Both the position numbers and the translations under genes were made by a program. A stretch of 64,000 nt of DNA, from positions 185,814,001 to 185,878,000 of the forward strand of contig OZ024742.1 of the NCBI GenBank assembly GCA_964016885.1, given 5' to 3'. Shown piece after piece: positions 1,104 to 48,606 of this stretch. Numbering within the stretch: the stretch's first letter is position 1; each line of letters opens with the position of its first letter. The DNA is from Eledone cirrhosa (Eukaryota). The notes under the pieces are model-generated. The model saw only the letters and a program-made list of their open reading frames with translations. It did not search any database and was not told the origin of the DNA.

Positions 1104-1449
1104 ATAGAAAAAAAACGAGGAAGTTTAGTTTACATATGAAAAATATTTATTGTGTATCGACCTGTTACTCGCCTTTCGCAGAGGATTGGCTCAAAAGTAA
1201 AATTGAGATAGAGGGTTTGTGTTTCTGTTGTATATATATATATATATATATATATTTCGTTTCTGAATTTGTTTAGCAAGATTCTTTATCTGAAATCGTG
1301 TGTTGAAACCGATATTGTTATACTTTAGGAGGGTCATGTTGCCAATAAGAAACACACGCACCAGTTGCTTTCACTTCAATTTATTATAATAAATTTATAA
1401 ATTTCTGGTTGGTTGGTTGGTTCCACAACCAGATAGTTGTTTATATATT

Positions 1450-1492
1450 GTCATAGTTCTTTCGTCACACACTCTGTGACCTCTTCAGTGAC
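1450..1492 (-). ncRNA. Minimal type I hammerhead ribozyme candidate in PLE1 3' pLTR
   Basis: GUCA-CUGAAGA-g-GUCACA gagug UGUGAC-GAAAG aa CUA-UGAC. Confidence 0.6.
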
Positions 1493-1691
1493 TGGGGATT
1501 CCTTTCTTTGTTTCTGTGCCTCTCCTTTGTTCTGTCCTACGCCATTTTGTTTCTGTGTGTGTGTTGTGTGCTCAGTCTGCGCATGCGCCACATCCGGGTG
1601 TCTGTGTGTGTTTATGTTCATTTATGTATTTGTTTATTTACATGTTACTGGTTGGTTGTTTGTTCTGTGTGTGTGTGTTTTCATTTTGTCC

Positions 1692-3966
1692 TTAATTGTA
1701 AGTTGTGATGTTGTTGTTCCACTCATATTTTCTATTTAATTTTGGTTGTAATTCTTTTATGTTTATTGCCTCTGTAATTTGTCTAAACATTGCGTCTTTT
1801 CTGTGTGTAGATTCTATTTTTATTTCTATGTTCTCTAATTTACCCTTGTGTTCTATTTTAGCATGTTGGTAGAGTACAGATGATTCTTTACTATCTTGAA
1901 GGTCTCGCCAGTGTTCATTTATCCGTTCTCCTACACTACGGGCTGTCTCACCTATGTACACTATATTGTTGTCTCTACATTGTCCTTCAGTACATCTTAG
2001 TTTTGCAGTTAATATGGGGGCTTATTTTACAGGTTATACATTTCTTATCTATACATGAGGGTCTTTGAAAAGGGTATGTCTTGCTAATAAGTGTTTTTAC
2101 GGAGGTACCTGGTCTTTCTACTATCTTAATATTGAGTTTATGTTTGTTTAGGGCCCTTCTAAATTTGTAAGCTAATTCCCCTCTAGGGGTTGTATCGATG
2201 AACATTACACTCTGGTATTTATTGCTATCATACCATGAGTTTATTCTATTAGCCTTGTTCCTAGTTCTTTCTATTCTATTCCAAAAGTTGCTCCTATACA
2301 AGGGGCAGGTCCCATTTATGTCATTATTTACCATTTTTTCCCATTTGGTTCTGGCTCCTCTATACACTCTGATTTTATCTCTCTGATTGTAGCCAGAAAA
2401 CTGCATATGGTGGATGAAGTGTTGTATGTGTCTCTCTAGTTCTTCGGGGTTGCACATGCGGGACACGTTTCTCATCACCCGTACCAAATCTGCAATCAGT
2501 ATGTTGATTTTGGTATGGTCCGAAACGGCCGAGTTTCGGTGGATCAGATGTTTGGAAGTCATTGGTTTGGCATAATGGGAATGGAGGATTTGTTTTTTAT
2601 TGTTAATGGTATCTAACCAGAGCTCTGTGTCTAGTACAGGTACTCGATGGTTGGGGTGTTTACTTGGGTAGTCTATAGTAACTCTAATGCTCTGGTGGAT
2701 GGAGTTTGCTATTTGCTGGATGCTTTCCATCGTGTTTTTCTCTAGTTCCTGACTGTTCTCTAGAGGGGGTGTCTTAACTACGATGTTTATATCATCAACG
2801 TAGCGGGAGTACATTATCAGGGTTAAGGGGGCTTCTAATTGTTCTTTAAGTTTAAGTTTATGTCTACTGTCCCACCATACCATGAATAAGTTAGCTATGT
2901 CGCCTGCAATGCTAACACCAATGGCTGCTCCTTCCTCTTGGGCATATGTTTTTCTATTAAATTTGAACATATGTTCCTTAATGGTTAGTTTTATGCTGGC
3001 CTCTACCGCATGTGCAATCATTTTCTTCAGTTCATCGTGGTTTTCGGGTGTCCGTATGGCTCTGGTCCACCCGTTCCATCTATCTGTGTGGGTTTTCTTG
3101 GCCATTGAGGTAATGGTAGGTGGTCTGCCTCTTGCTGGTCTTGTAGGGCACAGGTTGCTAAGGTCATATGTGTCTAGGTAATTATTACTATAGGTAAGTT
3201 TAAGTAGGAGTCCCAGCTCACTGGTATCAATCCCACGGAACTCAACATTGCTCTCACTGATCATTTCTACGCATTTCTCCACAGCAAAATCCACGTCAAT
3301 AGATGGATACAGGGACACAACATCCATACTACCTATTATGCAGTTTGTTAGGTCCCTAGATCGGTTACTCACGCCGATTCTGCTGAGGAGATCCTCCGTG
3401 CTGTCACATACATCTGGGGACATTTCAATGATGGGGCGTATGATCAGGGAGAGGAAGTAGGACAGTCTGTAGTTACTAGCAATGTTAGCTCCACAGACTG
3501 GCCGTGTTGGTGGTCCCGTGACAGGGTCACTGCCCGTTTTATGGTCTTTTCGAAGCCCATACAACGCCGGCACGTCATTGTTCCAGGCCTTGTAGTTGTT
3601 GGCAGACCTTTTGTTGGGCTGCATTATATTCGTCCACATCACCATATGGGCATTGAGGGCTTTTTCTCTATCCTCATGCTCCTGTGGTGTTACCTCTCTT
3701 GTGTTAGTGATGTGGGGTTGCATTGCCTGGATGTAGTTTGGCAGGCTGTCAACTGACATTCTGCCAGACTTGTCTGTTGGAAAGCATGGTATCTCTCCAT
3801 TACGTGAGCGCTGCATGAGCTTACGCAAGCCATTTGCAGATTTTTCTCCCAGTTGCTGGGCCTCCATTCTATTATGCTTCTTGCTATACTGTTCTATAAT
3901 ATTTCTAATTTCGGATCTAGCTATACTAAATTGTGCTTCTGTTTGTTCATCGACCTGCGACGGCAA
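1692..3966 (-). pseudogene. PLE RT + GIY-YIG ORF, frameshifted near 1995
   Basis: Motifs PTDKSGR, SMDVVSLYPSI, GAAIGVSIAGDIANLFM, RYVDD, Cys linker CIDKKCITC; a ~20-nt deletion relative to the right copy splits off YIGETARSVGERINEH (ORF 1692-1961). Confidence 0.9.
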
Positions 3967-4041
3967 TTGCGTGCGTTTGTTAAATGGTAAAGTCGTGGCG
4001 TGGACTCGTCGCAGGTCGAACGATTTATCCGAGGGATTATA

Positions 4042-46482: not shown

Positions 46483-46697
46483 TATATATATATATATATA
46501 TATATATATATATATATATATATATATATATATATATATATATATATATATATATATATATATATATATATATATATATATATATATATATATGTATATA
46601 TATATAGTAATAATAATAAATTTGAAGACTAAAATCCAAAGAGGGCTCGATAAGGATAAATATATATCAAATATATAAGAACCGTAGAGAAAATATT

Positions 46698-46832
46698 TAT
46701 TAAAATAACAGATTAAAGTTTAAGCAAAGAATCGCTGCTTTCACCCTTAACGGGATCTTCTGAAACTCAGAAGATCCCGTTAAGGGTGAAAGCACCGATT
46801 CTTTGCTTAAACTTTAATCTGTTATTTTAATA
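46698..46832. repeat. Fold-back palindrome (66-bp arms, 3-bp loop)
   Basis: One mismatch; followed by (TA)n. Confidence 0.9.
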
Positions 46833-47179
46833 TATATATATATATATATATATATATATATATATATATATATATATATATATATATAGAAAGATTTGAA
46901 TGGATATAGTTTAGTTGAAAGGAATTTATTGACACGTGTTTCTATAACAGTTACATAACCTGAAAACAGCTGCTATCTACAAAGTATTATATTACAACAC
47001 AACGGAAAATACTGTATATATATATATATATATATATATATATATATATATATATATATATATATATATATATATATATATATATATATATATACAAATA
47101 AAATACAGAGTTACTAACTCATATTGATACCCTGTAATTAACAAGCTCAAAGTATAAATACTGAGCATTATATAATAAT

Positions 47180-47890
47180 ATATGTAGAAATCATCATCAT
47201 CATCATCATCATCACCGTATAAACACAGTAAATTGTGTGTCTAAAATTACGAGGGTTGAAGTATCACATTGGTTTGATAAATTTAACCTGAAGCAAACGG
47301 AAGATATAGAATATATATACAGACCGTCTCAATAACTATTTCATCTCTCGGGCAGATTAAAGATTTAATGTTTCGCCCAGAAAATTGTGTTTGTAACAGA
47401 TAATCCGTAGGCTATCCTCAGCGAGAGACGAGATTAAATGGAACAAGCACATACAACTAAAAGCCACACGCATGAATATCTCACCTCGTGCGCTGGACGT
47501 TAGAAGTAGTGTGAGTGGATATGCTAACTAGGTGATCTTATAAGTTGGGTGTATTAAGGCTATTGTTTTTAGCATATCTACTCACACCACTTCTAACGTC
47601 CAGCGCACGAGGTGAGATATTCATTCGTGTGGCTTTTAGTTGTATGTGCTTGTTCCATTTAATCTTGTCTCTCGCTGAGGATAGCCTACGGATTATCTGT
47701 TACAAACACAATTTTCAGGGCGAAACAGATTAAATCTCTAATCTGCCCGAGAGATGAAATAGTTATTGAGACGGTCTGTATATATATTCTATATCTTCCG
47801 TTTGCTTCAGGTTAAATTTATCAAACCAATGTGATACTTCAACCCTCGTAATTTTAGACACACAATTTACTGTGTTTATTTCTACATATA
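47180..47890. repeat. Fold-back palindrome (~310-bp arms, ~41-bp spacer) carrying hammerhead folds
   Basis: 47219-47528 is the reverse complement of 47570-47879; a (TCA)n insert is present in the left end only. Confidence 0.92.
47668..47754 (+). ncRNA. Type I hammerhead-like fold with non-canonical GCC site (mirror 47344-47428, minus)
   Basis: UCUCUCG/CGAGAGA, CUGAGGA, GCC..GGC, GAAA-CAGAUUA aaucuc UAAUCUG-CC. Confidence 0.55.
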
Positions 47891-48606
47891 TATATATATA
47901 CAGGCTTTCCTGGAGATTTCTTTTGAAGGAAACAATTCTAGTCCTATAGAAGCCATTTATATTAAACCTGATATTTACACTCTACTAATGTATTGAGTAC
48001 CTTACTAACTGTGGTTACCCCCCGACTAAACCCGTAACTCACACACGCGCACACACATACACACATATATATATATATAATGTTATATAATGTTTGTATG
48101 GGTGTATATATGTGTATATATAGTTGGTGGATTGTAATGTACAGTTACCATAACAGAATCCGGCGAGCTTTTGATTCCAGAGTCTGGCCAGATTGATACA
48201 GATCGAATCTTGAGCTGATCAATAGCAAAACGCGTGTCACTACTCAATAAGCTTAATGAAGGCTTAACAAATCGTCCTTTTTTATTATTAGTATATATAT
48301 ATATGTGTGTGTATAAGTAAATACATTATACAATTATCAAAGTTGTGTTCAAATCATTTAATAGCTGACAATCGGTTCTTCCAAACTCTCGTTTGGAGTC
48401 ATCGGAGCGTTATCAATGTTTGTACATGTAATCAACCTCCTATTCAACTGAACAATAATATAGATACATATAAATTTATGTTGTGAGCAACAGTTTCGTA
48501 TTTACAGGGTGGAATGGATGTGACATATATTTTACGAGAATTGTACAATAACATTCAATTAAAATTAAAATTTAAATTTAAATTAAATTAAAATCAAAAG
48601 CACGGA

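Follow-up and report, generated by a model that had tools for sequence, protein, structure and literature searches.

Penelope-like elements (PLEs) are retroelements for which inverted copies, tails, a bias towards TA targets, hammerhead ribozymes, non-autonomous partners and an octopus family of the Hydra clade are already in print (PMC8557442; PMC7229834; Li et al., 2026). One of these accounts calls the way in which their inverted copies and tails arise undefined (PMC8557442). One PLE protein was shown in vitro to nick and extend both target strands, with two internal reverse transcriptase (RT) starts that bound the tail and with hammerhead cleavage being dispensable; as described there, the in vitro work ends ahead of the second-strand steps (PMC11167929). 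Moreover, an untemplated 5' G is a mark of copied caps in L1 and SVA (PMC4859970), and the Penelope promoter has an initiator-type start (PMC2377424). Here we analyse 64,000 nucleotides (nt) of Eledone cirrhosa (assembly GCA_964016885.1, contig OZ024742.1, positions 185,814,001 to 185,878,000; hereafter the window), in which short islands lie between (TA)n tracts. We give a probability of about 70% to the reading that these islands are head-to-head insertions, into (TA)n, of PLEs and of partners without open reading frames (ORFs), with both target strands primed, one long and one short RT start, and joining at the 5' ends. The observations on which it is based are the identity of the families, their ends at TA, a pair of fixed 3' ends in each of them, the pairing of a long with a short end, and a pile-up of 5' ends with an extra G.

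Results

Self-comparison of the window recovered eight fold-backs, with 0-17 arm mismatches when the centre is counted in, and two large inverted PLEs (Table 1). The inverted repeats of a preliminary description of the window were thereby confirmed, save that the island at 33213 has an opposite fragment and is not a tail-out fold-back, because a (TA)n tract sits at its centre. Both large PLEs do have an inverted copy, as had been proposed, and the 3' end at (TA)n ascribed to them fails for the right arm of PLE1, which stops at 6255, ahead of the short end of its family. The islands had also been taken for PLE products in (TA)n, and this was borne out: (TA)4 lies no further than 170 nt from 93 of 95 family ends, compared with 23/83 ends of a common short interspersed element (SINE) and 27% of random positions in an unbiased sample, and ORFs lie upstream of families A, F, H and J. 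Each of the ten island families that were searched for proved multicopy rather than single-copy, B and G through copies at other loci.

The distances from copy end to TA tract fall into two clusters, at 0 and 80 nt in family F, about 13 and 105 in J, and 2-6 and 62 in PLE1; those of family H also form two clusters, less sharply. The two ends are combined within single insertions. Among head-to-head pairs, counted with those having (TA)6 between the anchors skipped, 129 of 141 join one long and one short 3' end (H 71/79, F 43/43, F1 15/19), where independent end choice predicts at most half mixed pairs (P about 1e-25). When the nearer tail marker was used for fixed-centre copies of family H, all 49 were long-short, including five that had scored short-short in the count of 71/79. 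A second set of 45 pairs, less six with spacers above 100 nt (mostly pairings across insertions), gave 37/39.

The parents of several islands could be traced. Islands 16215 (family A), 34536 (F), 40297 (J) and 46698 (H) are best read as ends of autonomous Hydra-type PLEs, with an upstream ORF of 808 amino acids (aa) in A (locus L113), RT-endonuclease (RT-EN) ORFs in J (L115 and L116), endonuclease ORFs in F (L411 and L419), and in H an ORF between two pseudo-long terminal repeats (pLTRs; L303). One 33-mer of family H has 14,687 exact matches, and three patterns of family F together have 25,357. The structure of endonuclease-containing PLEs is found, namely partial tandems (the pLTRs of L303), inverted 5'-truncated copies and a tail at one end. 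PLE1 matches RVT_1 and GIY-YIG, each slightly below the Pfam cut-off; the RT-GIY-YIG fusion of PLE2 was recognised by motifs, and A, H, J and F by motifs and alignment, Pfam giving no relevant family for five Hydra-type ORFs. Cysteines lie between GIY and YIG in both PLE1 and PLE2, which by their motifs may belong to the Neptune or Nematis clade (PLE2 being Neptune-like). A separate N-terminal ORF close to a PLE1 RT-EN copy (L113:203-825 and 1861-3331) is possibly ORF1 of PLE1. Families A and H carry RWR, not RWK, and DKT, which also occurs in one RT piece beside a J copy; A, H, J and F share a CxCX5C linker and an endonuclease without CCHH. As far as sequence was recovered, these motifs match the published marks of the Hydra clade (PMC8557442).

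Non-autonomous partners, which the preliminary description had foreseen as well as 3'-end relics, also exist (F1, I, G, D and probably C). Islands 31261/33437 (F1), 46339 (G) and 47180 (I) appear as ORF-less units with predicted hammerheads, and 33213 (C) is probably another. Their tandem periods are 317-320 nt in F1 (two loci), 463 in I, 467 in G and about 470 in C after subtraction of a SINE insert (one locus each), and their longest ATG-initiated ORF has 28-36 aa. Family D (33663) is a tandem unit of 257-264 nt with a tRNA-like head, which scores 45.9 bits with the Rfam tRNA model (cut-off 29) and is called a tRNA by ARAGORN in 26 of 30 loci picked with the head as query. ARAGORN reads it as tRNA-Ser(GGA) (L111 (-), L093:1031-1102 and L343-L372), so that family D heads would inflate tRNA counts. 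The family has tandem units, two fixed ends in (TA)n and inversions; neither a LINE-type (long interspersed element) 3' tail nor monomeric insertion was found, nor was a CUGANGA core seen by eye. A run of five T, which would likely halt RNA polymerase III, lies about 10 nt past the tRNA. The recurring centre of D sits at the 3' arm of the tRNA, near the T-loop, where one may speculate that a modified base could stop RT.

In families H, F and K, the 5' ends pile up at one base, often with an extra G (letter tallies were counted by eye). In H, a non-parental base precedes one particular A 2,606 times, compared with 780 and 930 at the neighbouring bases. This base was G in 53 of the first 100 cases, whereas G is not favoured at the neighbours, and all 20 G cases among 30 loci depart from the parent at the pile-up base and are junctions. 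A parent subfamily carrying G at this position was rejected, as 0/20 continue into the parent. In F, the count is 9,794 at the pile-up compared with 2,860 one base upstream, with G 44, C 48 and A 8 per 100, and 6/6 G cases are junctions. Family K has the strongest G signature (80/100). A TATA-like box lies 29-31 nt upstream in 14/14 matched parent sequences of K and F, with a pattern that allowed 26-34; loci of family K with a TATA box include L169, L194, L208 and L220. At L303, counted from the putative start, the hammerhead cut lies at about +46, the short end at +72, the long end at +158 and the ATG at +203. Hammerhead cleavage as the origin of the 5' ends was discarded, since the H cut site, the one examined, shows no excess (820). 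Short-centre fold-backs of H number 807 with many junctions, the centre seen in the window accounting for 14 of the first 50, and 241 copies share one identical exact centre, attributable to a 2-bp pairing that takes in the extra base. At L401/L402 (G000:C1:62156858-62156924), one junction contains more than two pieces of the leader start, which would fit the joining of several short cDNAs. The preliminary description had called the islands relics, which is incomplete: many short copies of H, F and K share the start base with its extra G, and so look as if a short RNA leader had been copied in full, not truncated at random.

Layouts of predicted hammerheads were seen in all six families for which they had been claimed. 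A type I descriptor matched seven times in the first 50 kb, and 60 shuffles gave no match. The core is canonical in A and J. The motif of A (16455) fits only with a stem II of 97-107 nt (34 copies), and that of I (47668) only with a longer or offset stem II; the cut site of I is GCC in the window, and GTC in 13 and GCC in 7 of 20 copies. Family H has the core CAGAAGA. Family F shows only a 3' half in the window, and its parent core is TTGAAAA or TTGATAA, that is, U3-A8 in place of the C3-G8 pair. Hammerheads with a U3-A8 core work. A C3G/G8C swap partly rescues cleavage (PMC11167929). Both sides of stem I change between subfamilies of K, and loci L169-L227 hold many more hammerhead families with differing stems and a common layout, including several J-like subfamilies with varied stem II. 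The descriptor search found no canonical hammerhead at the PLE2 end, and Rfam gave no hammerhead family among the 150 of 176 window matches listed, nor among 10 for 33380-33660. Minimum free energy folds reproduced the hammerhead shape only partially, with z-scores of -0.2 to -4.1, and were not used as evidence.

The islands had further been thought unusually dense in this region, and that claim did not hold. In 59 evenly spaced 10-kb stretches (590 kb) of the 3.0-Gb genome, a sample that over-weights small chromosomes, 56 fold-backs with TA ends were counted along with 58 hammerheads (each roughly one in 10 kb), and five shuffles gave none. With identical detectors, the first 50 kb of the window has seven fold-backs (P=0.20) and seven hammerheads (P=0.23). 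By extrapolation, the fold-backs would number about 2.8 x 10^5 and the hammerhead motifs about 2.9 x 10^5. The window is typical, and it is the genome itself that stands out.

Table 1. Elements of the PLE system located in the window. Cores 1488, 6119, 31459, 33254, 33466, 40324 and 41125 are the type I descriptor matches; IR, inverted repeat; UTR, untranslated region.
Feature	Position	Strand	Details
PLE1 inverted arm	1256..4071	-	frameshifted RT and GIY-YIG ORF; minimal hammerhead in the 3' UTR, core 1488 (-); (TA)n 1231-1254 at the long 3' end
PLE1 direct arm	4042..6255	+	5'-truncated RT-EN ORF to 5915; hammerhead core 6119 (+)
Family A fold-back	16085..16650	.	putative end of autonomous Hydra-type PLE; IR 16218-16650; tail 16085-16217; centre is a natural 6-bp inverted repeat of the parent
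Family A hammerhead	16453-16598	+	long stem II
Family B fold-back	28052..28215	.	IR 28052-28144; tail 28145-28215; longer relatives exist
Family F1 fold-back	31261..31712	.	ORF-less 317-320 nt tandem unit; IR 31298-31712; tail 31261-31297; hammerhead core 31459 (-), second at about 31550 (+) with changed cut triplet
Family K further remnant	31747-31800
Family C end	33075..33266	-	hammerhead core 33254 (-); unit about 470 nt, no ORF (one tandem case)
Family C opposite fragment	33299-33340		42 nt, past central (TA)n
Family F1 second copy	33341..33649	+	core 33466 (+), palindromic stem III; long end at (TA)n
Family D fold-back	33664..33910	.	piece of 257-264 nt tandem unit with tRNA-like head; IR 33664-33854; tail 33855-33910
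Family G solo end	34310..34404	-	tail and a few bases
Family F fold-back	34459..34624	.	putative Hydra-type PLE end; half hammerhead (3'); IR 34539-34624; tail 34459-34538
PLE2	34813..39216	-	broken RT and C-terminal GIY-YIG; long end left
PLE2 inverted arm	38559-39216		short end at (TA)n
Family J	39344..40412	+	3' UTR of putative second Hydra-type PLE; hammerhead core 40324 (+)
PLE1 third copy	40432..41372	+	5'-truncated, flanked by two TA tracts; core 41125 (+); long end
Family G fold-back	46272..46480	.	perfect 140-nt palindrome (IR 46341-46480); tail 46272-46340; hammerhead of the 467-nt ORF-less parent unit falls outside this piece
Family H fold-back	46607..46829	.	leader of putative Hydra-type PLE; IR 46701-46829; tail 46607-46700; CAGAAGA core 46762 (-)
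Family H fold-back centre	46757-46773		at the putative transcription start, with extra base
Family I fold-back	47095..47885	.	ORF-less 463-nt tandem unit; IR 47219-47879; hammerhead at about 47675 (+); tail 47095-47218 broken by (CAT)n
Family K degenerate copy	47900..48035	+	short PLE-type end with hammerhead; matched by eye

Different families (C-F1 and F1-F) abut without (TA)n between them at 33299-33649 of the window, L026 and L404. These direct joints suggest template switching between RNAs, or nested insertion. Short TA-flanked elements at 28597-28695 and 39233-39325 are MITE-like (miniature inverted-repeat transposable elements), with symmetric inverted ends unlike the PLE islands. The control SINE forms a dense cluster at 25560-27175, 31056-31243 and 45191-45828, with some inverted pairs. 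LINE-like RT fragments were recognised by eye, without a Pfam match, at 6530-6904, just past the broken right end of PLE1, and at 48592-49194. Minisatellite arrays and a 14-kb T-rich simple-repeat block occupy 9356-12609, 21119-24385, 27300-27846 and 50176-64000.

Discussion

Our results indicate a real genome-wide PLE system whose copy ends give testable clues to an open mechanism. We propose that the RT/GIY-YIG protein would prime both target strands, since (TA)n reads alike on both. One copy would begin at the distal (long) RT start and the other at the proximal (short) one, and the two would then likely be joined head to head at their 5' ends through microhomology. On a capped mRNA template, copying would stop at the transcription start and add a cap-templated base; the pile-up base may accordingly mark the start of transcription in the pLTR, and the extra G may be the copied cap. 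As the RT starts lie within the leader, an ordinary mRNA would yield copies of only 70-160 nt, and a full-length copy would require a transcript that reads through to the next pLTR. The two copies in an insertion probably stem from one RNA or one source locus, and the hammerheads seem to ride along without setting the copy ends. We lean slightly towards a stronger version of this proposal, in which integration would be obligately two-sided and asymmetric, a dimer priming both (TA)n strands from two starts. Capped mRNA would then have left tens of thousands of fold-backs that record start and cap, and the same machinery would also have moved retrozymes and a tRNA-headed partner, so that hammerhead motifs and hairpins would each have come to number about 3 x 10^5.

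Several points weigh against this reading. The start site and the cap are deduced from DNA, not from RNA. Most H copies run beyond the pile-up base (14,687 through-going matches), so that read-through templates must be the majority, and a clear TATA box at -30 is lacking in H. Family F has C as often as G; 3 of 15 C cases come from a parent subfamily, the rest being junctions. The G junctions of K were seen at four loci only, other than those tallied for 80/100. The pile-up was examined in three of the families, H, F and K. As to pairing, it is weak or uncounted in the small sets (A 2/3, I 2/5, G 2/2, D none scored), and some loci were picked by similarity to the query.

Long-short pairs are likewise predicted if a single long-end cDNA snaps back to form the second arm and the endonuclease cuts it at the short site, a route we consider unlikely. 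The arms of one insertion usually carry matching subfamily variants (median 2 differences within insertions compared with 6 between), short snap-back sequences and microhomologies occur at the centres, and resolution by the endonuclease has been proposed for the tail (PMC8557442), all of which would suit it. However, among 36 non-fixed junctions of H, eight have the extra base on each of the two arms, and this requires two cDNAs; either arm may extend further 5' at H centres (30 compared with 19); at L149 the arms belong to two subfamilies; and in vitro RT starts at both sites on both strands (PMC11167929). One position of family H varies, with changes to C, A and T. It may be a hot spot of mutation and does not separate one template from two.

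It is also conceivable, and in our view distinctly unlikely, that the origin from PLEs holds and the pile-up reflects a structural RT stop or a truncation hot spot with a non-templated C, instead of a capped start. RTs are able to add untemplated bases, the pile-up base of H and K falls on, or adjoins, the 5' strand of hammerhead stem I, and such a stop gains from a capped start being read from DNA. Against it, the pile-up base of F sits in the stem II loop, K and F have the TATA-like boxes 29-31 nt upstream described above, the G excess of H is confined to the pile-up base, and the hammerhead cut site of H has no pile-up. We find it very improbable that short palindromes propagate themselves, as MITE-like DNA transposons or as palindromic RNAs copied whole. 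The single exact centre of the 241 H copies, recurring centres in D and K and the MITE-like element at 28597-28695 would fit this, whereas the ends are asymmetric with the tail on either side, and arms run into RT-EN ORFs at other loci. The symmetric ends, fixed length and lack of an RT parent that define MITEs were not found, and a self-propagating H palindrome was dropped given the many centres and the G cases being junctions. Finally, it is scarcely credible that errors of assembly, or the repair of (TA)n hairpins, gave rise to the palindromes. The palindrome at 46341-46480 is indeed perfect, and no contig spanned 31260-31712 whole, the contigs being too short to bridge it. Nevertheless, arms differ in 7/8 islands, fixed ends specific to each family are met again, with variable centres, at many loci, the control SINE shows no tie to TA, and contigs from run X1, which may be the assembled sample, show opposite-strand joints of F1. 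Insertion of two cDNAs primed on both strands stays our preferred reading.

In a partly targeted literature search, which covered few subscription papers and neither Repbase nor Dfam, we did not find the near-strict long-short pairing, a start-site and G signature of PLEs or a tRNA-headed PLE partner; the repeat library of PMC13282606 may already include these families. The genome gives countable rules, long with short and a 5' pile-up with G, that are directly testable in a reconstituted system. It is easy to mistake short palindromes of this kind for MITEs, SINEs, tRNA genes or microRNAs (Rfam gave mir-5014-like matches that stay under its cut-off) and, if transcribed, fold-backs would be a large source of double-stranded RNA.

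The nearest relatives of the autonomous families are the Hydra-clade PLEs, which include octopus Hydra-1_Obim (Craig et al., 2021, PMC8557442). They share an RW-basic motif, DKT, CxCX5C, plus a GIY-YIG at the C terminus that lacks the internal cysteine pair, and also (TA)n targets, hammerheads, inverted 5'-truncated copies and a tail at one end. As reported there, the clade was drawn from 23 proteins, whereas one genome here holds at least four families, two of them with the match counts given above. Tails measure 77-130 nt here and 30-40 in the described clade, and the H core and the U3-A8 core of F are unlike those described for it (PMC8557442). Poseidon PAc of Anolis (Frangieh et al., 2024, PMC11167929) likewise nicks and extends both strands, sets its tail by two internal starts and needs no hammerhead cleavage. 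However, its starts are internal to the ORF and in vitro each strand uses the two sites without distinction, whereas here they lie in the leader and give long-short pairs; the account of PAc, as far as we draw on it, does not mention a cap signature.

Non-LTR retrozymes (lacking long terminal repeats) (Cervera and de la Pena, 2020, PMC7229834; Li et al., 2026, bioRxiv 10.64898/2026.07.22.740005) resemble F1, I, G and C in being ORF-less tandem units with a type I hammerhead and proposed partners of PLEs. The F1 unit fits their range of about 170-400 nt, whereas I, G and C exceed it. F1, I, G and C differ in that their tandems are short and dispersed and carry PLE tails, inversions and TA ends, features that speak structurally for mobilisation by PLEs. 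Counts obtained by other methods are up to 120,000 for axolotl retrozymes (PMC7229834) and about 38,500 for S. mansoni (PMC2770079). For family D, the nearest precedent is the tRNA-related, SINE-like Sm-alpha of Schistosoma, which has a hammerhead (PMC2770079). D lacks the CUGANGA core, and its long and short ends are of the PLE type, with inversions head to head.

The pairing of two copies also invites comparison with the twin priming of L1. There, the second primer copies a different part of the RNA. In the islands, both copies span one end region and give a palindrome, unlike in L1. What the two systems would have in common is that two primings lead to an inversion and that, as described for L1, an untemplated G marks the copied cap (PMC4859970).

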